Shown: positions 3 through 18,737, numbered from the stretch's first letter. The stretch is 20,000 nucleotides of DNA from an uncultured virus (IMG/VR IMGVR_UViG_3300029889_000001) (IMGVR_UViG_3300029889_000001:53459-73458), one strand, 5' to 3'. Translations and numbers: made by a program. The notes: generated by a model not told the origin, from the letters alone.

Positions 3-1745
3 GGGACGAATATCCTCACCAAGCTCCTGCATTTCGTCAATGACTACCAACCTGATTCCTGCGGCGATAGATACAGCGCACTGGAAAGCCGCCTTGAAGA
101 TATGTTCCTCCGCGCCTGAGATTTCCTTGACCGGGCCAACGTATCCGCGTGCGGTTTTAACCTCAAAGCGAAGGTCTTCCGACAAAGAGGATTCGTACCC
201 AAAGGCGCTCATAACCTCACAGAGCTTCGATTCAAAACCACCGATATATTCCTCAATCAAGGTTTTCTTCACGCCGTCTTTGTCGAAATACTTGACTAGG
301 GAATCCAGCGTTGCCGCTTTCTTTTGCAGCTTCGTCAACTGCTCTGTCAGTCGTGTCCTTTCCGCCGCTCTCTCCTCAGCCGCAATGACAGGACGTAGCT
401 GCTCGTTAACCTTATCTTCCTCAGCCTGTAGGGTAGCCAGAGGGTCGTTGAACGGGAGCGTGGCGTTGACTGCCTCTGGTAGTGCCTCCAGTTCGGCCTT
501 GGTTGCCTTACCCGCCTTGACCGTCTCTGTCAAAGACGCTTCAAGTGTGATCTTTTCCTTGACCGCCGCTTCATGCTTTCTGAGTGATTCCTTTGCTGCT
601 CCGATGTCTCCTATCGCCTCGATCTGTTTGTCTACATATTGAATCTCTCGATCTGAATCGGCAACCTCTTTTTGAAGATCGCTAATCATGGCTTCTAGTT
701 TGGTAGCGTCTATGTCCTGTTCGCACATAGGGCACTTGGCTTGATCGCCTAATAATCCTTTGAGTTTTTCTATCTGCTCATTGGATACTTGGATACCACC
801 AAGCCAACTAGCGTGATTTTTGTTGAGTTCGGCTAATTCTTGAGCCTTTGCAGCGGTCGCAGTAAATCCTTTTACCTGTTCCGCGCTGAGGATTTCCGTC
901 TCTAGCTGCTCTAGTCTCGCCTTTCCCTTACCTAGCTCCGCTCTCAGACCCTCGATCTTGGTCTGTAATTTGCCGCGCTTGACCTCGATATTGTTAGCCG
1001 TTGCAACCGCTGTATCCCGCTCCAGTTGCAGGTTGTGGCGCTTTGCTTTAATCTCAGTCAACTTGGTTTGGAGAGATTCTGAGTCTACTCCTCTCGGCGT
1101 AGGTAAGGCGTCAGGAATTACGAAGTCCTTTACCTGTCGATTGGTCGTTTCACGCTCCTTGTGGAGCAACTTATACGCACCTGTAATCACAGTGAAAGGC
1201 TCTGCGTCGAAGTCAACCTTTCCTTCGCCTAACATCTCCTCCACGGCATCCGTCTTGTCCTTTGGAAAGTCGTAGTGCGGCGGAAGAACCAGCTTGGCTA
1301 ATAGGTCTGTCTGAGCCTTTTCATCTAGACGTGAGAAGTAGTCTGTCGCCGTGGCAATCAACATCGCTGCTTTCCTGTCGGCAAGGAAGTTCTTGAATCC
1401 ATTCACAATTTTGCTATTATCGGGATCATCCAAGCACTCAGTATTCACGGTGCGACCGCTCGAATTAGTATTGAGCGTTACAATATTTCGCAACAGATGT
1501 GTGCCCTGAATCTCCGCTGTGATTATTGCCTTGCTCTCGCCTTGCCGAATCTTCTTTTGGAATCCTTTACCATCACTGGAAAGGGATACAGTTGTCTGCG
1601 CAAGATTCATCGACAAAGCTTCCGCGAAACTCGTCTTGCCGCTCATGTTCTTACCGCGAAGGATTACGAAAGAGGCGTCTCCGCAGTCGAGCGTGGAGTT
1701 TTCATGAATCCTATAGTCCTTGAGTGTCAGTTTCTTCAGACGCAT
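3..1745 (-). CDS. Rad50/SbcC-like SMC-family ATPase (3' end runs off the window)
   Basis: Absent from the ORF track; translated by hand from ATG 1745: MRLKKLTLKDYRIHEN...Walker A GKNMSGKTS, coiled coil, zinc hook CPMC (723-734), coiled coil, signature ISGAE, Walker B LVVIDE. Frame stays open to the left edge (581 codons). Confidence 0.9.
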   Translation of the reverse strand, partial: MRLKKLTLKDYRIHENSTLDCGDASFVILRGKNMSGKTSFAEALSMNLAQTTVSLSSDGKGFQKKIRQGESKAIITAEIQGTHLLRNIVTLNTNSSGRTVNTECLDDPDNSKIVNGFKNFLADRKAAMLIATATDYFSRLDEKAQTDLLAKLVLPPHYDFPKDKTDAVEEMLGEGKVDFDAEPFTVITGAYKLLHKERETTNRQVKDFVIPDALPTPRGVDSESLQTKLTEIKAKRHNLQLERDTAVATANNIEVKRGKLQTKIEGLRAELGKGKARLEQLETEILSAEQVKGFTATAAKAQELAELNKNHASWLGGIQVSNEQIEKLKGLLGDQAKCPMCEQDIDATKLEAMISDLQKEVADSDREIQYVDKQIEAIGDIGAAKESLRKHEAAVKEKITLEASLTETVKAGKATKAELEALPEAVNATLPFNDPLATLQAEEDKVNEQLRPVIAAEERAAERTRLTEQLTKLQKKAATLDSLVKYFDKDGVKKTLIEEYIGGFESKLCEVMSAFGYESSLSEDLRFEVKTARGYVGPVKEISGAEEHIFKAAFQCAVSIAAGIRLVVIDEMQELGEDIRP

Positions 1746-1914
1746 CTTCTCTCTCCCATCCGCAAGTGTTACAGGTTAAAACCACGTCCATGCACGATCC
1801 GCACGGCGCACTCTTAAAGCATGTGCAGTTCTCCGATGGAGGATAGATCATCCTTCCTTCGCATCCATCTATAGGGCACGGATCGCCTTCGTCTACCTCA
1901 GAACTCATCTTCAT
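1711..1914 (-). CDS. Small Cys-rich (zinc-finger-like) hypothetical protein
   Basis: 67 aa with CPIDGC, CTC, CGSC and CNTC. Overlaps both neighbours in the same operon. Confidence 0.65.
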   Translation of the reverse strand: MKMSSEVDEGDPCPIDGCEGRMIYPPSENCTCFKSAPCGSCMDVVLTCNTCGWEREDASEETDTQGL

Positions 1915-3283
1915 CTCCCCATCCTTCCCCTTCGCTGTCCTCTTCCTGCTCCTCGTCAGGAACCGCGTCCAAAGGCTTGCTCACCTTGAGCGTTGCCTTC
2001 GTTACCTTGTCTGCGGTGTCCTGACAGGCTTGGTCAAGAAACGCCCTCTTTTTTGTTCCCAAATAGCTATTGAGCTTGGTTGAAGAGATAACCAGTTTTC
2101 CCATCCATGCCGTATCGCCTGTATTACCGAAAGCGTAATCTTCTACGATCAAATCCGCAATCGGCATTATCGGCCTGACTCTTCCTTCCTTACATTTTGG
2201 GCATAGTCCATTTTCAGGAACATAGTCGAATTGTTTTCCGCAGTCACACCTAGTTGCGATACTTTCTCCTGTTGTCCTGAAAAGAGGATACACGCTAGAT
2301 TCACTCTCGACGGGTCCGAAGACGTAAGCCTTCCCGTTGTAGTCTTTGAGAACTACTCTCTTTCCTGTCCCGTTAACATAATCGCGCAGCGTCTTGCTGT
2401 TGACCTTTGAAAAAGCACTGTACCAAAGCAGATAGCGGAGCCTATCAACTGGCTCTAGTTGCATTTGAGGGTTCCATTGGCTAATGGGGCACTCACGGTT
2501 GGAAAGAAGAGGGCAGTAGACACATTGAGCGCCTGAGATTGCTTCAATTTCCTTGCCGCCGTCGAAACTCACATGGATGGTTTTCTGGCGCTCTCTCGCA
2601 GCCTTCGCTTCCTCAATCAACTTAGGAACGTCTTGGCGCGTGTATTCCACCGTCCTAGTCATATTTTTGTAACGGACGAAAGTCAAACGGAATACAACAG
2701 TCTCCACCCATGTAAAGTGTTGATAAATAAAAAGCGCGTACATCTTAGCCTGCATTGTTTCGCTTGGCTCAAAAGCGCGAGCGTGTGATTTGAAGTCATC
2801 CACTAGAATCTTGTTTTCTGTGCGGAAGACGTACACGCCGTCAAGTGTTCCCTGATAGCATGGAGGCAACCCACTGTCTCCGCTTATCCCTTCTACCTCC
2901 GTTGCCACATCGGTAGGCTGAAAATGCTCATCAAGAGCCATGCCTAGTTCTGTAGCAAATAAATGTTCGTGGTCAACTACAAATCCATCGCGGAGTCCTG
3001 ATAGAATCCTAGCCGCTTGTGGCCCTGCGCCATGACTGAAAGATTCAAAGGCATCCAAGTCCATCCCTACCGATTTACGGGCGCAGTGGGAGAGATAAAG
3101 CGCCATTGTCTTGTGGATTTCAGTTCCACGCGCCGCCTCAAGTCCTCCCGGTGGTTTATTTCCTTTAATGAATACTTCCGTATAGAAACGAGGACAGGCC
3201 ATCGTTTCCTGAGTGGACTGCCTGAGTGGTGGGATAGGACTCTTCTGAATTTGAACCAACTCGGTAGATTTTCTCTTAGGCAT
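1898..3283 (-). CDS. PD-(D/E)xK exonuclease, Cas4/RecB/AddB-like, with extra C-terminal Zn ribbon and acidic tail
   Basis: N-terminal CPR, then RGTEIH, GTLD, DFKS, QAKMYA (QxxxY), and C-terminal CVYCP-x6-C (1+3 Cys Fe-S staple pattern). Additional CDC...CPKC motif. Confidence 0.88.
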   Translation of the reverse strand: MPKRKSTELVQIQKSPIPPLRQSTQETMACPRFYTEVFIKGNKPPGGLEAARGTEIHKTMALYLSHCARKSVGMDLDAFESFSHGAGPQAARILSGLRDGFVVDHEHLFATELGMALDEHFQPTDVATEVEGISGDSGLPPCYQGTLDGVYVFRTENKILVDDFKSHARAFEPSETMQAKMYALFIYQHFTWVETVVFRLTFVRYKNMTRTVEYTRQDVPKLIEEAKAARERQKTIHVSFDGGKEIEAISGAQCVYCPLLSNRECPISQWNPQMQLEPVDRLRYLLWYSAFSKVNSKTLRDYVNGTGKRVVLKDYNGKAYVFGPVESESSVYPLFRTTGESIATRCDCGKQFDYVPENGLCPKCKEGRVRPIMPIADLIVEDYAFGNTGDTAWMGKLVISSTKLNSYLGTKKRAFLDQACQDTADKVTKATLKVSKPLDAVPDEEQEEDSEGEGWGDEDEF

Positions 3284-4056: not shown

Positions 4057-4248
4057 CTAAAATAGTCCTAATCTGGCAAACTCACGTCGGGTAAATTCCG
4101 CCGTCTTCGGGTCCAACTTCGCCATCAACTTGTGACGGTTGTTCGATTGCTCTATCTTTTCGTTAAGGATACGTGCCTCACCTATCCTTCTCAAGTCTTC
4201 AACCGTTTTGATGGCACCGCTCTTGCCTTTATTCTTTCCTCTCTTCAT
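4057..4248 (-). CDS. Small basic hypothetical protein
   Basis: 63 aa. ATGA overlap with the PurA-like stop; GGAGG SD inside the upstream gene. Confidence 0.65.
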   Translation of the reverse strand: MKRGKNKGKSGAIKTVEDLRRIGEARILNEKIEQSNNRHKLMAKLDPKTAEFTRREFARLGLF

Positions 4249-5366
4249 GCCGTTACCTCCATATTGATTGTCCTGTGCGCCGCTGTCGGGCCTCTCCCTT
4301 GCATAACAACAGGAGCGAGTTCACTGACCCGATCAATAAACACTCGTTCCTGCCATCCTAAGCGGGGTAGGTAGTCGAGATGACTCAAAGCCAATACATC
4401 CACCCCGCCAACAATGCTTAGTGCTTGTTTAGCCAAAGTGAAGTCAAAGCGTCCTACGCGGAACTTACCTTGGAATCCGTCGTTTCCATTGTGCGGCTCA
4501 GGAAGATCAAGAGTGTTATCTTCGGTCGGAAATGGTCCTACTCCGTGACGAGTGTAGTACGTTCTCAGGCATCCAATCCTCATTCTGTCCGTACAACCGA
4601 TCTCGTCAAGCAGCGTATCGGCGTTCTCAAAGGTAGTGTTCGTCCATGTGTTGTGCGGAGCAGTACCGTGCTTTTCGTCCAGCATTACTCCCTGCGCTCC
4701 CTCGAAAACCATGCACCTCGATTCGCCAATGATTGAACTGTCCTCCGGTACTAAACGAACAAATGCCTTCCAGCGATCATACCCAACCTTTATATCTTCA
4801 ATATTTAGATCAGAGGTAGCCTCTACTCCCATTTCTTTTTGAACAAGGTTTTTCTGAAATTTCAATTTCTCTCGCAGGTCCACCCAATCGTAAATATCCT
4901 CCGCGCAGAGCACATTATCGCGCCCGTATTTCAATTCAAACTCTCGCGCCACCCCAACTCCCATCCCACAACTTCCATGCCGTCCCGTACCACGCGCCGT
5001 CTCTCTAAGCCGGTTGAGACGCTTGTGAAAAGGTGTAATAACAACACATCTGGCGGATATGGTCAATCTTCTCCACCAGCCAGGAGTTTTCTTGGCTAAC
5101 TCATCCGCCTCGTTCAACATGGTAATTGGATCGATAAGCATAAAACGTGATAAATGCGTCCTAACTTGATCGTTCGCCATCATTCCAGAGCCGAACTGGG
5201 AAAAGGTATGATGTACGCCTTCGGGGGTAATCACGTTATGAGCGCATTGCGATCCACCCCCATGCCGCACGATTAAGTCCACTGGAAGGCTACGGCAGAG
5301 TGCATCCACCGTAGCCCCTTTGGACTCGTCGCCGAAACCTAACCCGGCTACAGAGATTGCTCTCAC
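4245..5366 (-). CDS. purA: Divergent adenylosuccinate synthetase-family (PurA-fold) ligase
   Basis: GFGDESKG (cf. GDEGKG), GGSQCAHN (cf. GGHNAGHT), GSCGMGVG, FEGAQG-x2-LD, TRHGVGPFPTE, SHLD, GRGP. 373 aa. Family call is firm; canonical activity is doubtful. Confidence 0.9.
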   Translation of the reverse strand: MRAISVAGLGFGDESKGATVDALCRSLPVDLIVRHGGGSQCAHNVITPEGVHHTFSQFGSGMMANDQVRTHLSRFMLIDPITMLNEADELAKKTPGWWRRLTISARCVVITPFHKRLNRLRETARGTGRHGSCGMGVGVAREFELKYGRDNVLCAEDIYDWVDLREKLKFQKNLVQKEMGVEATSDLNIEDIKVGYDRWKAFVRLVPEDSSIIGESRCMVFEGAQGVMLDEKHGTAPHNTWTNTTFENADTLLDEIGCTDRMRIGCLRTYYTRHGVGPFPTEDNTLDLPEPHNGNDGFQGKFRVGRFDFTLAKQALSIVGGVDVLALSHLDYLPRLGWQERVFIDRVSELAPVVMQGRGPTAAHRTINMEVTA

Positions 5367-6307
5367 AGCCTTGCCGCCTTCCCCGCTCCAGACGTAGCCA
5401 GTGAGTCAGTGGTAACATGCTTCATTGACTTGACTAGAGCCTTGGCTTCGCTATCTCCTACGCCGATAGCCACAAGGTCAGTGACCACCGACGCCGGAGT
5501 TGCCTTGGACTCATACAGGCCAATAGTCGAAGCAATCAACTCGCAAAGCAGATTTGGATGCTGGCTGGTTAGCACAGATTCCTCGCCAAACAGTCTGACG
5601 TACTGCTCACGAGCATGACGGTATCCACCATCCGGCCAGATCACGAAGATATTGAAGTTCCTGCGGGCCTCTTCGATGATCTCCGCGATAGGAATATCTT
5701 TTTCGATGGTATCGCCGAAGATCGCCTTCACTTCCTTCGCTTGAACATGGGTGAAGATTGGCTCATCGGCATACAGGAACATATAGCCCTTTTTCCCACG
5801 TTTCTCGACAGAATCAAGCACCATCTTCCGCGCTGCCGCGTAGAGCAGCAGATCGTAAGACTCACCATCATTGCCGCCTCCAAGACAGACCAGATAGATG
5901 TTGCGAATGTGATCGTCTACGCGGTTGTCACTCTCGAAGTCTGAAAGCTGAACACAGTTGGACCCCGCATAGTTGTAGTCATCATTCGCCGCAACCGCAA
6001 CTTGCGGATCAGTCAGGTACTTGTTGAGCAGTTCCATCAGGTTAGGCAAACGCTTCTGCGCGTCCACTGCTCGCTCATAGTTCGAGCCTGTCACGTCAAA
6101 GCAAACTAGTACAGGGTTGGATTGTGGATGCTCTGTCGAGTCACGCGCTTCGAGTTTTCCGAAAGGCTTGCTATTGATCCTCAGCGGGTCAAGGTTCGTG
6201 TGAACTGACGTTGCTGTTTTGGTATAGGCAAAATCGGCTACGCCGGTTGCCTTACGAGTGGTTGCTGACGAATGATATGCACCGCTATCCCAGGCTCCCC
6301 CGCCCAT
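5363..6307 (-). CDS. von Willebrand factor A (vWA) domain protein
   Basis: MIDAS-like DVTGS after a hydrophobic strand (VLVCF), GGGNDGESY, FLYADE. N-terminus MGGGAW. SD AAGGAG; GTGA-coupled to the PurA-like gene. Confidence 0.85.
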   Translation of the reverse strand: MGGGAWDSGAYHSSATTRKATGVADFAYTKTATSVHTNLDPLRINSKPFGKLEARDSTEHPQSNPVLVCFDVTGSNYERAVDAQKRLPNLMELLNKYLTDPQVAVAANDDYNYAGSNCVQLSDFESDNRVDDHIRNIYLVCLGGGNDGESYDLLLYAAARKMVLDSVEKRGKKGYMFLYADEPIFTHVQAKEVKAIFGDTIEKDIPIAEIIEEARRNFNIFVIWPDGGYRHAREQYVRLFGEESVLTSQHPNLLCELIASTIGLYESKATPASVVTDLVAIGVGDSEAKALVKSMKHVTTDSLATSGAGKAARL

Positions 6308-6324: not shown

Positions 6325-7374
6325 TTACGGCAAGTTAAATTCAACCCACTTAGGGGAGCCGTACCCCTTAGCAGCAGCTTGCTTCCAATCCTCAAGAACA
6401 TCACCGGCTTTCTGGTAACGCTTATCTGGATTTTCATCAAGACACTTCGATAGAACTTTTCCTAACTCCGGCAGCCACAAGGTTCCGCACAGATATGTCA
6501 TTAACCGCGCTGCCATGTAGATGTCGGATGGTGGCCCAATGTACTTCTTTGAAAGCAATTCTGGAGCATAGTGATCTTGCCACGCAGGAACCCACGAAGA
6601 AAGTCTCGTCCTCTGGGTATAGTCAACACTATAGCACCAATCCACGAGCCTGATCGAATGTTTTCTTGAGTCTTTTGTTATCGTGTTTCCGTCATTGTCT
6701 GGATAAAATAAAACGTGAGGCGGAAGGATGGCTCCATGAATGATCTTGAAATGATGAACCCAGGTAAGAAGAGTTAGGATTCTCTTAAACATCCACACTC
6801 CAGTCTTCTTCTCTACTGTGTTGTCTCCAAACTTTGCATGAACTTCCTGAGCCGTCACGAACCCAGGGAAGCGAGTAATAACATTCGCCTCTCGCTTCCA
6901 CAGTCCCTCTACCCAAAAGTTGCCTACCAACTCAGGAACACCGTCTCGGACAGGACCATCAATCTTTGCCAGAATCTTGAGCGCATTGACTTCTGCGCGT
7001 AGAAGATCATTGTCGTCGTGAGAGCGAGCAACCTTTACCAGAATCTTTCCGCCTTCAACCGTGTAAAGGTCTGCTATGTCTCCTATATGCGGATGAGGCT
7101 TGGCTTTGTACTTGCCGATCTCCAGAGGGACACAGTGAGGTAAAGGTACTCTCTTGCCCCATATTCCTTTCCTCACTCTCTCATCGGCTATTTGCTTGAG
7201 TTCGTTGAGTTTTTGAAAAGCCTTCTTTGCGATAGGCTCCGTAGGATTGTGATCTGGATGGCAAGCACGAGCAAGTTTACGAAAGACTATTGCTGGATCG
7301 TCGCCAGAACCAAACACATCCTCTGGGCAGCAGGCTCCGTCTAGCTTGTCGTAGATGAGTTGTAGTTCGCTCAC
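6325..7374 (-). CDS. J-domain-like (HPD) N-terminus fused to an atypical Ser/Thr-kinase fold (probable pseudokinase)
   Basis: FRKLARACHPDHN...AFQKL J-like segment. Kinase landmarks LVKVA, alphaC E, IIHGAILPPHV (HRD position = HGA), LVDWC (DFG position), YAPE, SDIY, CLDENPDKR. Confidence 0.85.
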   Translation of the reverse strand: MSELQLIYDKLDGACCPEDVFGSGDDPAIVFRKLARACHPDHNPTEPIAKKAFQKLNELKQIADERVRKGIWGKRVPLPHCVPLEIGKYKAKPHPHIGDIADLYTVEGGKILVKVARSHDDNDLLRAEVNALKILAKIDGPVRDGVPELVGNFWVEGLWKREANVITRFPGFVTAQEVHAKFGDNTVEKKTGVWMFKRILTLLTWVHHFKIIHGAILPPHVLFYPDNDGNTITKDSRKHSIRLVDWCYSVDYTQRTRLSSWVPAWQDHYAPELLSKKYIGPPSDIYMAARLMTYLCGTLWLPELGKVLSKCLDENPDKRYQKAGDVLEDWKQAAAKGYGSPKWVEFNLP

Positions 7375-7673
7375 TCAGAAGTCTCCGTTCCCTCTACCTT
7401 CGGTTCCTCAATCAAAGGCTCAATCATGTCGAGTCCTACCAGAATAGCCTTGAGCGTGGCACGAAGACTCTCAACCTCACTCTTACGTTGGTTATTGCGG
7501 TGAATCTGATCGAAGGCTTTGACGATATTGAAGGTCGTTCCGGTTTGAATCTTACGGTCGCTTGAGTAGTACCCTTGCTGTGAACCTACTGTTCGACCTG
7601 CTAGGTAGTCAATCTCTCGAAAAGTCGCCTCAACGAGAAAATTCCCGTCTCCTATAGTTCCGATGATTTTCAT
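7371..7673 (-). CDS. Hypothetical protein, first gene of the kinase-vWA-PurA unit
   Basis: 100 aa, SD GGGAGAGGG, GTGA-coupled to the kinase gene. Confidence 0.7.
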   Translation of the reverse strand: MKIIGTIGDGNFLVEATFREIDYLAGRTVGSQQGYYSSDRKIQTGTTFNIVKAFDQIHRNNQRKSEVESLRATLKAILVGLDMIEPLIEEPKVEGTETSE

Positions 7674-7796: not shown

Positions 7797-8978
7797 CTAA
7801 AATTCCAAGTTCAACGTCTTCGGTCGCCCTGGTTCCGCTTGCTGTGCCGGTTTCTCGTCCTGCGCGGGCTTGGTTTCTTGTGTTTCCTGTTGCGGCTCAG
7901 GCTTCTCCTCTGGCGCTGAGTCGATCTTCTTTGGCCGTCCACGACCGCGCTTCACTTCCGTTTCCTGCGGCGTCTCGGTCTTTGCTTGCTCAGTCTTGAC
8001 CTCTGCTTGCGATGCTTGCTGTGTTGCTTGCTCCGCTGGCTTCTCAGTTGCCTTCGTTTCCGTCTTGGCTACTGTCTGTCCTGTCGGCGCTAGGCGTCCA
8101 CGTAGGTACTCAAGCAACTCCTTCGCCCGTCCCATGTATGAGTTCTTGAGAAGACGCTTCTCTGTCTCGTTCTTGCCGAGTTGAGTAAACAGAGATTCAA
8201 TCTCCTTGTCAAATGGAGAACCGAATACCTCTTCAATCGTCCTGACGCCCTTCTTAATCTCCTCACAGAGAGCTTTCAGGGTGACAAGGTGGTCGATCTC
8301 CAGTTCCTTTGGCGAAGTGACTCCTACCGCGTTCATGATCTGCCACTCGCTCACGCCCAGCTTCGTCAGGTACTCCATAGCCGCGTCGATGCGCTGTGAA
8401 TGGCTTACAGCTTGTCCTACGGCGGTCAGCTTCGCTTGTTGGTAGGCTGGGTCCCAAAGAGCCATCGGAACGCCGCCTTTGAGAACTGCATCGCGGTAAG
8501 CAATGCTCAACGCAGCCTTTCCGGTCGTTAGGATCATATCGGCATTGAACTTCCGGCCTTCTTTGTCTGTGATCCGGCGAGGAACCTCTTTGGCGTTCTT
8601 GTTATTAAACTCGTAGTCAAGAAACACGCCTTGCGCGGTAATAGTGTCGTCTGTGCTTCCAAAAATCCTTGTTGCTGTGGACGTGTTTCTCCATGTTGGA
8701 GCCACAATCTCAGCAAAGCGAACTCCTGGTCCGACAATCTGCTTTCCTGCGCGGGGAAGCGTATAAAACATGCTCAGTGCAACAGGCTGAGAATGGGTTG
8801 CGTAGGACATGAGTTGCTTTTGAAAAGTGGTAATGTTTCTCCTGTTCGCTGGAAGGTTTGCTGTGGCAACCATGGCCGCATATTCCGACTGTGTGATAAT
8901 CGCTAATGTCGAAGGAGATGAGTCAATAATCTCCAAATTTGATTCATTCTCTGGTGGAAGGTATTCCTCGTTCGCCAT
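7797..8978 (-). CDS. Putative phage recombination / single-strand-annealing protein with low-complexity C-terminal tail
   Basis: Start at ATG 8978 with SD AAGGAG (not 9014). FYTLPR...IVGPGVRFAE...WRN core resembles proteins I recall next to phage Cas4-like exonucleases. Q/E/K/P/T-rich tail with AT-hook-like KRGRGRPKK. Function inferred from context. Confidence 0.55.
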   Translation of the reverse strand: MANEEYLPPENESNLEIIDSSPSTLAIITQSEYAAMVATANLPANRRNITTFQKQLMSYATHSQPVALSMFYTLPRAGKQIVGPGVRFAEIVAPTWRNTSTATRIFGSTDDTITAQGVFLDYEFNNKNAKEVPRRITDKEGRKFNADMILTTGKAALSIAYRDAVLKGGVPMALWDPAYQQAKLTAVGQAVSHSQRIDAAMEYLTKLGVSEWQIMNAVGVTSPKELEIDHLVTLKALCEEIKKGVRTIEEVFGSPFDKEIESLFTQLGKNETEKRLLKNSYMGRAKELLEYLRGRLAPTGQTVAKTETKATEKPAEQATQQASQAEVKTEQAKTETPQETEVKRGRGRPKKIDSAPEEKPEPQQETQETKPAQDEKPAQQAEPGRPKTLNLEF

Positions 8979-9023
8979 GCTGCTCCTTTTCCGGTTCTCC
9001 CGGTGTGGTTTCAAAATGTTCCA

Positions 9024-14316: not shown

Positions 14317-14523
14317 TTGAGACATTCCGCACTATGCACAGACGAAGAAGGAATCAACGAGTTTAATGCACGTATGGACCGAGAGGATTTAGAAGCACTT
14401 TCTGTAGCCTGTCCGCTCAAATCCTGCGGTGCTGAGGTAGGGGAGCATTGCTGCACGGATTCGGGACAGCGGAGAATACGTCACTGCCGCAGACTTTTAG
14501 AAGCGAGGAAACAGAATGGGTGA
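14317..14523 (+). CDS. Small Zn-finger protein
   Basis: VACP-x2-SCGAEVGEHC...RHCRR; SD AGGAG before TTG. Confidence 0.65.
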   Translation: MRHSALCTDEEGINEFNARMDREDLEALSVACPLKSCGAEVGEHCCTDSGQRRIRHCRRLLEARKQNG

Positions 14524-15265
14524 AAAAACTGGTATAAGTTGGACGACGCACACGATGAATCCGTGGCATGGTTGTACTGAGGTATCTCCTGGCTGCGACA
14601 ATTGCTATGCCCGTGTCCTTGACGCACGTTGGGGCGGCGATCCGCACTGGGGAAAGGGCGTATCCCGTAAGGTAATGAGTGATGCGTATTGGAGGCAACC
14701 TTTGCGGTGGAACGCTAACGCCGAAAAGGAAGGAGTCAAGCATAAAGTATTCTGTGCATCGATGGCCGATGTGATGGACGACGAAGCTCCTGCTGGTCAG
14801 CGGGAAAGGTTATGGGAGTTGATTGACAACACTCCTAATCTTATTTGGCAACTGCTAACCAAGCGACCACAGCGGTACATGCGCTACCTGCCGAAAGAGT
14901 TCAAGTATTGTAATGTGTGGCTTGGCATGAGTGCTGAGAACCAAAAGAATTTCGAGATTCGTGCCGATCATTTAATTGACGCGAGTATTGATCGCGGGAC
15001 GGTTGCATTTATCAGCTACGAACCTGCTCTTGGACCCCTAACTTTAAGCACTCGTCCAAACTGGCAACTTGATTGGTTGATTTGTGGTGCGGAAAGCGGT
15101 GCAAATCGTAGACCCATGGAGAAATATTGGGTTGAAAACATTCAAAAGGAATGTGCAGAGCGTGGAACGAAGTTTTTCATGAAGCAGTTCGGGGCACGAA
15201 CTCCAGAAGAAGGTGCAAGGTTAATCCCAGCCGAATTACTAATCCGCGAGTTTCCAGGGGAGTAA
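14516..15265 (+). CDS. DUF5131 / phage Gp37-Gp68 family protein (three-Cys, radical-SAM-like)
   Basis: TGISWT...NPWHGCTEVSPGCDNCYA, VFCASMAD, LLTKRP, NVWLGMSAENQ, SYEPALG, WLICGAESG, FFMKQ. Confidence 0.92.
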   Translation: MGEKTGISWTTHTMNPWHGCTEVSPGCDNCYARVLDARWGGDPHWGKGVSRKVMSDAYWRQPLRWNANAEKEGVKHKVFCASMADVMDDEAPAGQRERLWELIDNTPNLIWQLLTKRPQRYMRYLPKEFKYCNVWLGMSAENQKNFEIRADHLIDASIDRGTVAFISYEPALGPLTLSTRPNWQLDWLICGAESGANRRPMEKYWVENIQKECAERGTKFFMKQFGARTPEEGARLIPAELLIREFPGE

Positions 15266-16629: not shown

Positions 16630-17016
16630 ATGAAGCGTGGCGGCTACATCAAGCGTAAACCACCTAAGCCTCCTGTTGAGAGGATACCTCTAGCAATTCC
16701 GAGGCCATGTGAAGTGAAAAAAGAGATTGAAGTTGAGCATACCTTCCGAGATGGGAGAACGAAAATCAATCAGAATTGCAAGGAAGGCCGTGATCTTTAC
16801 CAGCAGCGTAAGCGCATCGCATGGGAAAAACAAGGGAAACTGTGCTCTATTTGCCACCTTCACTTAAACTGGGCAGACTCTACAGTAGACCATATCCGAG
16901 TCCGTGGCATGGGAGCCGGGTCTATAGACGACCGCCAGGAAAACATTGCGGCTGCACACGCCACTTGCAACGCTGCTCGTGGAAGTAGAACTCACGGATT
17001 TTATGGGGTTGCATGA
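16630..17016 (+). CDS. HNH endonuclease
   Basis: CSIC...TVDHI...ENIAAAHATCNAARG. Start ATG 16630 just after the upstream stop; ATGA-coupled to the MTase. Confidence 0.85.
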   Translation: MKRGGYIKRKPPKPPVERIPLAIPRPCEVKKEIEVEHTFRDGRTKINQNCKEGRDLYQQRKRIAWEKQGKLCSICHLHLNWADSTVDHIRVRGMGAGSIDDRQENIAAAHATCNAARGSRTHGFYGVA

Positions 17017-18737
17017 GATACCTTTCGGTTTGCTCAGGATTAGGTGGTGCGGAGTTAGCATTTACTTCTCTAGGATGGGAGTGTGCGGCTGTATGCGAAA
17101 TAGATTCCTCTGCTTGCGCTGTGCTTAAAGCAAGATTTCCAGACGTACCTAACTTGGGAGATTTTACAAAGATCGGAGTTGAAGATGTCGGAACAATCGA
17201 CCTTTTGGTCGGAGGAACACCTTGTCAAGATTTCTCAGTCGCCGGTCTCAGAGCAGGAATGGACGGAGATCGTGGTCAACTCACAATCGAGTTCGCTAGG
17301 GTTGCTGAGAGACTCAGGCCCAGATGGTTGGTCTGGGAGAACGTTCCCGGTGTGCTGTCGGTTGACGGAGGACGAGCGTTTGGAACCTTTCTCCGAATCT
17401 TGGGGCAATTCGGGTATGGGTTCGCTTACAGAATTCTTGACGCTCAATACTGCGGAGTTCCACAGCGAAGGCGTAGGGTCTTCGTTGTCGGATATCTTGG
17501 AGACTGGCGTCGTGCCGCAGCGGTACTATTTGAGCGCCAAAGCCTGTCAGGGTATCCTGCGCCGCGCAGAGAAGCGGGGAAAGGCGTTGCCGGATGCCTT
17601 AAAGGTGGCTCTGGAGAGCGTGGCTGGCCCGATCCCTCTGATGGAAACGGAGGAGGACTCATTGAAGTCGCTGGAACTCTGGGAGGAGGAAGCGGAGAAC
17701 GAGGATGGCAGAACCATGACGGAGCAGGGGCATTTGTTCCTGTAGGCCCAACTGGAAGCGGTAAGGATACATTTCCGTGTCTCTGTGCAAACTACGGAGA
17801 TAAGTGGGGGTTAGGCGATCAGGAAGCATTCAAAGGGGATCATCACATACTAACATCCAAGCCTATTTATGCAACCGATGGACAGGTTAACGCTGCTTTT
17901 GCGGAAGATCAAGCCTTGGCTCTTAACGCCACACATGAGCAACCGTATATAGTCGGCACTATGGCTTGCAATACAGGACCAAACGGGCACGACGCAGGGA
18001 ACTTCCAAAGTAATCAAGGGGTAGACTCTGGATATGTTATTCCAGTCGCCTTCACTCAAAACTCAAGAGATGAAGTTAGAGTAATAGGCGATGAAGGAGA
18101 GGTTTCAGGATCGCTCTCAGCGGAAACAGGAACACATCAGACCACTTATCTTGCCTATCGTACAAATGCGGCTGGACAGGTTGATCCTCAAGGAGATAAA
18201 TCCGATGCACTGACATCAAATACCGATCCTTGCACACAAATCCTTGCCTTTGACACGACACAAGTAACCAGCAAAACAAACCGTTCCAATCCGCAAGTAG
18301 GCGATCCATGTCATACACTCGCCAAAGGTTCGGATGCGCCAACGATTGCGTTTAGGACGAATCAAACATCTGCTCAAGGTCCAATTCATTCCGAAGAAGT
18401 AACGGATAGTTTGGCGCAAGATCATCCTCCCGCTGTTGCCTTTGCGTTACAGGGTGGGGGGAAGACTTCACAGAATTCGCAAGGAAGTACAATCAAAGAA
18501 GACTGCTCATTTACCTTAAACGTAACTGATGTGCATGGCATATCCACTGGGATGCAAGTACGCCGTCTTACTCCTACAGAGTGTGAGCGGTTACAAGGCA
18601 TACCTGACGGTTGGACAAAGATTACGGAGAAGTCATCAGATGGACCGCGATACCGAATGATCGGAAACGGCTTCGCTGTTCCTTGCGTGGCGTGGATAGG
18701 AAAAAGGATTCAAATGGTAGAGGATATGCTCAAATGA
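17013..18737 (+). CDS. dcm: DNA (cytosine-5)-methyltransferase with greatly expanded variable region
   Basis: Motif I CSGLGG, II CEID, IV GGTPCQDFS, VI ENVPG, VIII QRRRRVF, IX RRLTPTECERLQG, X IGNGFAVP. Confidence 0.95.
   Translation: MRYLSVCSGLGGAELAFTSLGWECAAVCEIDSSACAVLKARFPDVPNLGDFTKIGVEDVGTIDLLVGGTPCQDFSVAGLRAGMDGDRGQLTIEFARVAERLRPRWLVWENVPGVLSVDGGRAFGTFLRILGQFGYGFAYRILDAQYCGVPQRRRRVFVVGYLGDWRRAAAVLFERQSLSGYPAPRREAGKGVAGCLKGGSGERGWPDPSDGNGGGLIEVAGTLGGGSGERGWQNHDGAGAFVPVGPTGSGKDTFPCLCANYGDKWGLGDQEAFKGDHHILTSKPIYATDGQVNAAFAEDQALALNATHEQPYIVGTMACNTGPNGHDAGNFQSNQGVDSGYVIPVAFTQNSRDEVRVIGDEGEVSGSLSAETGTHQTTYLAYRTNAAGQVDPQGDKSDALTSNTDPCTQILAFDTTQVTSKTNRSNPQVGDPCHTLAKGSDAPTIAFRTNQTSAQGPIHSEEVTDSLAQDHPPAVAFALQGGGKTSQNSQGSTIKEDCSFTLNVTDVHGISTGMQVRRLTPTECERLQGIPDGWTKITEKSSDGPRYRMIGNGFAVPCVAWIGKRIQMVEDMLK
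17185..17745 (+). CDS. Nested +1-frame gene inside the C5-MTase (M.EcoHK31I beta-polypeptide-like)
   Basis: 186-codon same-strand ORF with its own GGAG SD 6 nt before ATG 17185. Contains SLSDILE...PQRYYLSAKACQGILRRAEKRGKALP. Confidence 0.65.
   Translation: MSEQSTFWSEEHLVKISQSPVSEQEWTEIVVNSQSSSLGLLRDSGPDGWSGRTFPVCCRLTEDERLEPFSESWGNSGMGSLTEFLTLNTAEFHSEGVGSSLSDILETGVVPQRYYLSAKACQGILRRAEKRGKALPDALKVALESVAGPIPLMETEEDSLKSLELWEEEAENEDGRTMTEQGHLFL

Follow-up and report, generated by a model that had tools for sequence, protein, structure and literature searches.

The window, a stretch of 20,000 nucleotides from an uncultured virus (IMG/VR IMGVR_UViG_3300029889_000001), lies within a 73-kb phage record and carries on one strand a PurA-like gene, a gene for a vWA-fold protein and a gene for a J-domain protein with a kinase fold (Table 1). 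The GTG start of the PurA-like gene overlaps the stop codon of the vWA gene, and an identical PurA-like protein occurs in a 136-kb record. The module is flanked by ordinary phage replication and recombination genes. The 100-aa ORF at its upstream side is not among the recurring neighbours listed and probably lies outside the conserved module. PADLOC returned nothing for the PurA-like protein, the vWA protein or this ORF and only generic kinase matches for the kinase protein, which in the ESM Atlas also falls in generic kinase clusters. A scan for promoters and terminators gave hits at chance level only.

Table 1. Genes and sites in the window (positions counted from its first nucleotide; residue numbers 13, 129 and 273 refer to E. 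coli PurA)
Feature	Position	Strand	Remarks
PurA-like enzyme, vWA-coupled clade	4245..5366	-	373 aa; short form, most of the segment after E. coli ~335 missing
Catalytic Asp13 codon	5328..5330	-	D in 124/124 family and 30/30 PurA; S in 3/3 PurZ
GSCG (131-134), in place of the IMP-phosphate GTT(G) motif	4965..4976	-	T129 to C in 117/124
His274, in place of ribose-facing Val273	4545..4547	-	H in 124/124 family and 4/4 divergent; V in 30/30 PurA and 3/3 PurZ
Remodelled former aspartate loop, H292-R303	4458..4493	-	family consensus H-N-x4-[WF]-Q-G-x-F-R
vWA-fold protein	5363..6307	-	314 aa; DxTGS metal site; Met-Gly N-terminus; phrog_2971, E 5.5e-49
vWA Gly2 codon, candidate amine acceptor after Met removal	6302..6304	-	Gly after the start codon in 120/121
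J-domain and pseudokinase protein	6325..7374	-	349 aa; DnaJ, E 3e-6; Pkinase, E 6e-5
ORF coupled to the kinase start	7371..7673	-	100 aa; no Pfam, NCBIfam, PHROG or PADLOC match
Flank: SbcC-like ATPase	3-1745	-	same strand as the module
Flank: Cas4-like exonuclease	1898-3283	-	same strand as the module
Flank: phrog_3657	7797-9014	-	same strand as the module
DUF5131 gene	14516-15265
C5 cytosine methyltransferase	17013-18737		574 aa; Pfam match split around a long insertion

Active site and relationships of the PurA-like enzyme

The PurA-like ORF matches PF00709 (E 4e-51), and falls far below the cut-offs of both functional models, scoring 127 against 395.55 bits for TIGR00184 (the PurA equivalog) and 30 against 300 for NF038379 (PurZ). 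An AF2 model of the protein (pLDDT 93.3) resembles E. coli PurA (1cg4) with a VIA Z of 42.8, an rmsd of 2.3 over 357 residues and a TM of 0.84; its best structural matches are PurA (Z up to 43.6), with PurZ lower (Z 28-34.5). The predicted fold is thus that of PurA. No fused or longer form of the PurA-like protein was found in a search that covered only 901-2570 aa and is a weak negative, as is the similar failure to find fused or longer forms of the vWA protein.

Residues are numbered after E. coli PurA (NC_000913.3) and were compared in an alignment of 161 unique sequences, namely 124 of the family, four divergent sequences, 30 canonical PurA and three PurZ (S-2L, Archimedes and an Acinetobacter phage), with three short or motif-less ORFs left out. 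The mapping comes from sequence and profile alignments (MAFFT, HHalign). The window enzyme keeps D13, K16, H43 (=H41), Q225 (=Q224), T240 (=T239), GPFPTE, D331 (=D333) and Arg306, so that the catalytic residues named as retained in an earlier note on this DNA (Asp13, His41, Gln224, Thr239, GPFPTE and Asp333) are borne out by the alignment. Across the family D13, K16, H41, R272 and R306 are invariant (124/124), and Q224, D311 and D333 (123/124 each) and T239 (120/124) nearly so; all of these, with the fold, are shared with canonical PurA (EC 6.3.4.4; PF00709, TIGR00184; 1cg4, 1ade). The unchanged first-step residues point to NTP-driven phosphorylation of a bound nucleotide, and the retained D333 suggests that the NTP would be GTP. 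D333 is likewise present in Archimedes PurZ0, with Q or N at the site in the other two PurZ; PurZ0 uses GTP.

Exactly as the note had claimed, N38 is replaced in the window enzyme by Q40, GTTG by GSCG, V273 by H274 and K331 by H329, R143 is absent, and the aspartate loop GATTGRRRR of E. coli PurA gives way to HNGNDGFQGKFR. Beyond these, R305 has become F, S240 W and I126 H. The changes hold family-wide: N38Q and V273H occur in all 124 sequences, T129C in 117, S240W in 114, I126H in 115, T301W/F/Y in 117, R303G in 111 (Arg stays in 4), R305F in 96 and K331H in 100. Arg is outside the four commonest family residues at the R305 site, which we take to be part of the aspartate loop, and R143 is unconserved. 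A further 65 metagenome sequences have the same pattern, with the catalytic core invariant in 65/65 and Arg at position 303 in 5.

Could the aspartate ligands persist at shifted positions? The loop motif T-[GSKN]-[RKL]-x-R is present in 30/30 PurA and 3/3 PurZ and in 0/124 family and 0/4 divergent sequences. MAFFT and HHalign differ by a one-residue shift inside the loop and agree on F302=R305 and R303=R306, and no shifted ligands were found in either register. With the aspartate loop lost, the amine should be one that lacks carboxylates. The loop that replaces it is itself strongly conserved (N295 in 123/124, Q302 in 118/124, with H273 in 124/124), suggesting a defined new ligand. It is also conceivable that no ligation takes place and that the enzyme holds or hydrolyses a 6-phospho-nucleotide, thereby sensing nucleotides and controlling the vWA protein and the pseudokinase. 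Invariance of the first-half-reaction residues beside a replaced acceptor loop is in keeping with such a phosphotransfer switch, as are the typical regulatory folds of the partners. However, the strong conservation of the new loop speaks against it, and we regard it as unlikely.

The available part of a study of H. pylori AdSS gives the IMP contacts as Arg135', Asn37, Gly119, Thr121, Thr230, Val264 and Arg294, and also describes the GDP contacts and the Asp loop (PMC11276676); the roles of R303 and of the ribose-facing Val, and the function of the aspartate loop, are treated in the accessible portion of another (PMC8342488). With these contacts carried over to E. coli numbering by our own mapping, five of the seven are altered (N38Q, T129C, R143 lost, V273H, R303G), and the ring-side residues D13, Q224 and T239 are unaltered. 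The nucleotide site has therefore been rebuilt as well as the amine site. Phosphorylation of a purine nucleotide, as proposed in the note, is a reasonable inference from the conservation of D13, K16, H41 and Q224, but the substrate may not be plain IMP, since the ribose and 5'-phosphate contacts are rebuilt too.

In a quick IQ-TREE phylogeny of 46 of the 124 family rows, the four divergent sequences, 30 PurA and three PurZ, with archaeal short-type PurA left out, the family and divergent rows share a single branch (SH-aLRT 100, length 1.74), separate from PurA and PurZ. Bacterial carriers belong to Actinomycetota, Chloroflexota, Planctomycetota, Verrucomicrobiota, Myxococcota, Patescibacteria and Pseudomonadota, and 33 of 38 such genomes also bear a canonical purA above the TIGR00184 cut-off. 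An ordinary, divergent adenylosuccinate synthetase serving as an auxiliary metabolic gene would explain the shared fold and is how databases annotate the protein. This reading is rejected as highly improbable, given the missing aspartate-loop motif, the score below the equivalog cut-off, the separate clade, the co-resident purA and the tight coupling to non-purine genes.

PurZ and PurZ0 (S-2L, Archimedes; 7odx, 7vf6, 6fm1; Z 33-34.5 to the model) offer a close parallel, as phage-borne PurA paralogues with altered specificity. Unlike the family, PurZ keeps a Thr/Arg aspartate loop (3/3), has DatZ/MazZ partners and carries Ser at position 13, as the note had stated; the part consulted of a recent survey reports Ser at this site in 147/147 phage PurZ (PMC12884076). 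An enzyme making a precursor for a modified virion-DNA base, Z-like or N6-glycyl adenine, might be expected from the PHROG and RefSeq label '2-aminooxy adenylosuccinate synthetase' and from the frequency of the gene in large phages. Against this stand Asp13 in every family member, the separate clade and the lack of any YfbR/DatZ-like gene in five of five carrier phage records (DatZ as PF12917; two of the records are 100% complete). The same module moreover sits beside NrtR in bacterial chromosomes, and the NrtR and NAD-salvage context described below makes virion-DNA modification unlikely. PurZ and Z-DNA are rejected on these grounds, and a virion-base role of any kind has very little probability, in line with the note's view that this is not the Z-genome enzyme. 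RefSeq records of cluster C phages carry the PurZ label despite Asp13, a propagated mis-annotation.

The description 'neither PurA nor PurZ' has thus held up against the tree, both family models and the purA paralogues, and we are confident that the protein is neither an AMP synthetase nor PurZ. Its best explanation is that, within the PurA family, it represents a third clade with a function of its own, which works with a dedicated vWA protein and in most cases also with a pseudokinase bearing a J-domain.

A three-gene module with a glycine-led vWA protein

The vWA gene lies within the PurA-like locus in 81/84 phage and 46/51 bacterial cases (127/135 overall) and in 0/28 canonical purA loci, counts that include many close kin and so are not independent events. 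The three phage loci without it all lie at contig ends, as do three of the five bacterial misses, two of which have a vWA gene elsewhere in the genome. No vWA match was obtained for the remaining three, L118, L126 and L101. Among metagenome loci with at least 1.5 kb upstream, 49/55 have the vWA gene and 6 lack it. Conversely, 76 of 80 viral loci anchored on the vWA gene have an adjoining PurA-like gene, and isolate phages carry both in equal numbers (201 Mycobacterium phage records, 10 of Rhizobium and 6 of Vibrio phages). The kinase gene is present in 64/84 phage and 34/51 bacterial loci. The trio is also that of Bxz1 (cluster C), whose gp247, gp248 and gp250, at 36% identity, are annotated as a serine/threonine kinase, a hypothetical protein and a PurA-like adenylosuccinate synthetase. 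Bxz1 is known by annotation, and the labels 'kinase' and '2-aminooxy adenylosuccinate synthetase' are unsupported by the residues.

Some loci depart from this arrangement. In one subtype a pyruvate-kinase-barrel-like gene stands beside the vWA and PurA-like genes (L121:7081-7989, L132:5669-6628, L255:854-1762), with a uridine-kinase/CYTH gene also downstream in L255. In another locus a zinc-ribbon and SPFH/Band-7 protein is encoded directly upstream of the PurA-like gene, in the place of the vWA gene (L264:1347-3740).

In the kinase-fold partner (n=94) the Lys and Glu of a kinase are retained (K114 in 90/94, E128 in 93/94), and the J-domain HPD is present in 75/94. The HRD motif reads HGA, with Ala at the Asp position in 79/94 and Asp outside the four commonest residues. 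An active Ser/Thr kinase is rejected on the replacement of this catalytic-loop Asp, and the partner is taken to be a pseudokinase, since it keeps Lys and Glu and has HGA for HRD. The TerY-P triad consists of the vWA protein TerY, a PP2C and a Ser/Thr kinase. By description it resembles the present module as a trio with vWA and kinase-fold genes, and differs from it in that a PurA-like enzyme replaces PP2C, the kinase lacks the catalytic Asp and the vWA protein has a conserved Met-Gly extension; no PP2C was found among the neighbours scanned.

The vWA protein has no Pfam match, and the ESM Atlas places it in unnamed clusters only. Its AF2 model (pLDDT 93) resembles integrin beta-I and other vWA domains (VIA Z 15.6, rmsd 3.1 over 198 residues), and D71, T73, D110, E125, E149 and D181 are invariant in 98 sequences. 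The predicted structure is a Rossmann-type vWA fold with a DxSxS-like metal site.

The start of the protein was examined by listing, for 121 unique vWA genes, all starts 45-130 codons upstream of the metal motif. Met-Gly-x(2-5)-aromatic was found in 113/121, with a Shine-Dalgarno-like motif in 102 of these. The eight genes missed by the pattern comprise five that begin Met-Gly on inspection, two with ATC-Gly and one with Met-Arg, from Saccharibacteria, whose two closest relatives start Met-Gly. Gly thus directly follows all starts but one, and Ala or Ser never takes its place, though either would likewise permit Met removal. By a lenient pattern Met-Gly was found in 52/52, and Gly comes second in only 10/126 PurA-like starts. 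An ordered N-terminus is predicted, with a mean pLDDT of 86 over residues 1-10 and of 96 over residues 11-20, so that Gly2 may be structural, or else a target of the pseudokinase.

Several vWA genes have features of their own. Loci L029, L106 and L131 each carry two paralogues, all starting Met-Gly. The ATC apparent starts lie at approximately L019:4798 and L081:4020 and were assigned because the conserved Gly-led N-terminus follows that codon. In the mycobacteriophage Quasimodo, gp264 (NC_054721.1; L249:2465-4282) is annotated as an HNH endonuclease and is a vWA gene with an apparent intein of ~250 aa, which starts with Cys, ends in Asn/Cys and gives a weak Hint match (E 0.0015). It lies in a conserved KGY|xF motif just before the GDE metal ligand. 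Among the phage vWA matches listed, 16/60 end at the same residue, 185. Eleven inteins have been reported in an unnamed C1 hypothetical protein (PMC5050341), which may be this vWA protein.

NAD-stress context and candidate reactions

The note had missed the three-gene module itself, which is tied to NrtR and NAD-salvage genes. NrtR is encoded at 30/51 bacterial loci (all 30 in Actinomycetota, where it mostly opens the operon), 8/84 phage loci and 17/80 metagenome loci, and phage loci also have NAMPT (9/84), NADAR (4/84) and NMNAT (2/84); none of the four occurs at the 28 control purA loci. L025 reads NrtR, NAMPT, vWA, PurA-like, kinase, NMNAT, NADAR, and L075 is a further example of the module joined with NAD-salvage genes. 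NADAR lies upstream in Vibrio phage Va1, and at a Sungbacteria locus an NAD synthetase gene follows downstream. As far as the source could be consulted, NrtR senses ADP-ribose (PMC2330246). The module thereby shares operons with the NrtR, NAMPT, NMNAT and NADAR of known NrtR regulons and phage NAD-salvage loci (PMC2330246, PMC9503650), from which the window phage differs in having no NAMPT or NUDIX genes. NAMPT/NAPRTase, NUDIX (including nrtR) and DatZ-like genes were each found in 0/5 of the window phage, three relatives and Bxz1, so that the NAD link is a property of the family and not of the window locus. A scan for the GT-N7-AC operator matched 1/6 loci (shuffle mean 0.29; only six loci entered) and gave nothing upstream of the window module. 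A phage-borne nrtR (L069:325-1041) has two near-identical GT-N7-AC palindromes just upstream. The best explanation of these associations is that in many hosts and phages the module belongs to an ADP-ribose/NAD-stress operon.

RNA-repair genes (TROVE/Ro60, RtcB, 2H phosphoesterase, polynucleotide kinase) are found close to the module in several phages (L008, L012, L017, L167, L293 and L004), a neighbourhood that, by analogy, resembles counter-defence islands.

What would the enzyme join to its nucleotide? Our best, still tentative, guess from the sequences is that it uses GTP to couple a 6-oxopurine nucleotide to the glycine at the N-terminus of the vWA protein. In a first step GTP/Mg2+ with Asp13, Lys16 and His41 would phosphorylate a 6-oxopurine nucleotide at O6, and this nucleotide would differ from IMP at its ribose or 5'-phosphate end. 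An amine without carboxylate groups would then displace the phosphate, the likeliest single acceptor being the alpha-amine of the vWA N-terminal Gly, exposed once Met is removed, and the product would link the N-terminus of a protein to a purine nucleotide at C6. More speculatively, this tag might switch the vWA protein and be read or reset by the pseudokinase with its DnaK-recruiting J-domain, and the module might serve the phage in handling nucleotide/NAD stress in the infected host. A C6-linked purine on the vWA glycine that acts as a sensor or switch in ADP-ribose/NAD stress, with the J-domain pseudokinase as reader, is possible but doubtful.

A peptide N-terminal Gly has neither a side chain nor a free carboxylate and is compatible with the lost aspartate loop. 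The note had already put forward this acceptor, which stays a candidate, circumstantially favoured by the near-invariant Gly2 and the almost constant presence of the partner. Several observations count against it: the ordered vWA N-terminus, the Met-Arg Saccharibacteria protein, the enzyme-bearing genomes L118 and L126 and the six metagenome loci without vWA, and a Met-Gly vWA gene at L231, a 149-kb, 75%-complete record without a PurA-like match. With bulky W/F and His inside it, the pocket might admit nothing larger than ammonia, and the NAD-salvage context suits small-molecule chemistry.

Alternatively, the enzyme may be a small-molecule aminase that uses ammonia or a small amine to re-aminate a hypoxanthine nucleotide directly, without aspartate or PurB. 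The substrate would be IMP/dIMP or a 5'-substituted nucleotide (IDP-ribose, deamino-NAD or (d)ITP, for example) generated by deaminase defences of the host; the vWA protein and pseudokinase would be regulatory or scaffold subunits, and Gly2 structural. PurA accepts hydroxylamine, and deaminase-based defences exist (RADAR, Kongming). Changed IMP contacts around unaltered ring-side residues, the ordered vWA N-terminus and the operons that unite the module with NrtR, NAMPT, NMNAT and NADAR (L025, L075) all favour direct amination, which we hold to be a close rival, nearly as likely as coupling to glycine. However, it leaves a near-obligate vWA partner with a Gly-only second position unexplained, and no glutaminase that could supply ammonia recurs among the neighbours scanned: Pfam found neither a glutaminase nor a lyase among 217 neighbour ORFs, and the only amidotransferase seen nearby, at one locus, is a nitrilase domain within an NAD synthetase.

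The NAD-salvage neighbours, and the NAD synthetase adjoining that one locus, also raise the idea of a pyridine substrate, with NaMN (or NaAD) amidated via an acyl-phosphate by a new NMN/NAD synthetase. Counted in bonds, the carboxyl oxygen of NaMN would be as far from the glycosidic nitrogen as is O6 in IMP. Retention of D13, Q224 and T239 and the lack of NAPRTase/NAMPT genes in the window phage and its relatives argue against this, and it seems even less probable than the phosphotransfer switch.

Precedent and significance

No description of the module was found in the literature searched, whose coverage excludes subscription journals. The consulted part of PMC12884076 counts 481 phage PurA homologues, of which only the PurZ group is characterised, and from its counts ~365 of 767 tree sequences fall outside both named groups; its Supplementary Fig. 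S8, a PurA tree, may show this clade unlabelled. In the portions available, PMC9476963 lists the annotation only, PMC7824862 does not mention PurA or adenylosuccinate and bioRxiv 2025.10.22.683976 does not mention vWA; the main texts of PMC9503650 and PMC2330246, as far as accessible, contain neither purA nor adenylosuccinate. The PurA-family variant is real, family-wide and part of a hitherto undescribed module.

Some 200 records of cluster C mycobacteriophages and many bacterial genomes at present give the clade the name PurA or PurZ, and its genes are no evidence for Z-DNA or for auxiliary metabolism in AMP synthesis. PurZ is a precedent for new nucleotide chemistry concealed in a PurA paralogue of phages, and the present family is a second, larger clade of this kind. 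Enzymology would gain something new from each leading outcome, be it nucleotidylation of an N-terminus through the base, direct re-amination of deaminated nucleotides or a new step in NAD salvage, and Bxz1 in M. smegmatis offers a culturable case in which they can be tested. Should the acceptor turn out to be the N-terminus of a protein, the finding would be new in kind: C6-linked N-terminal nucleotidylation would, if true, be an undescribed protein modification, present in bacteria and in hundreds of large phages.
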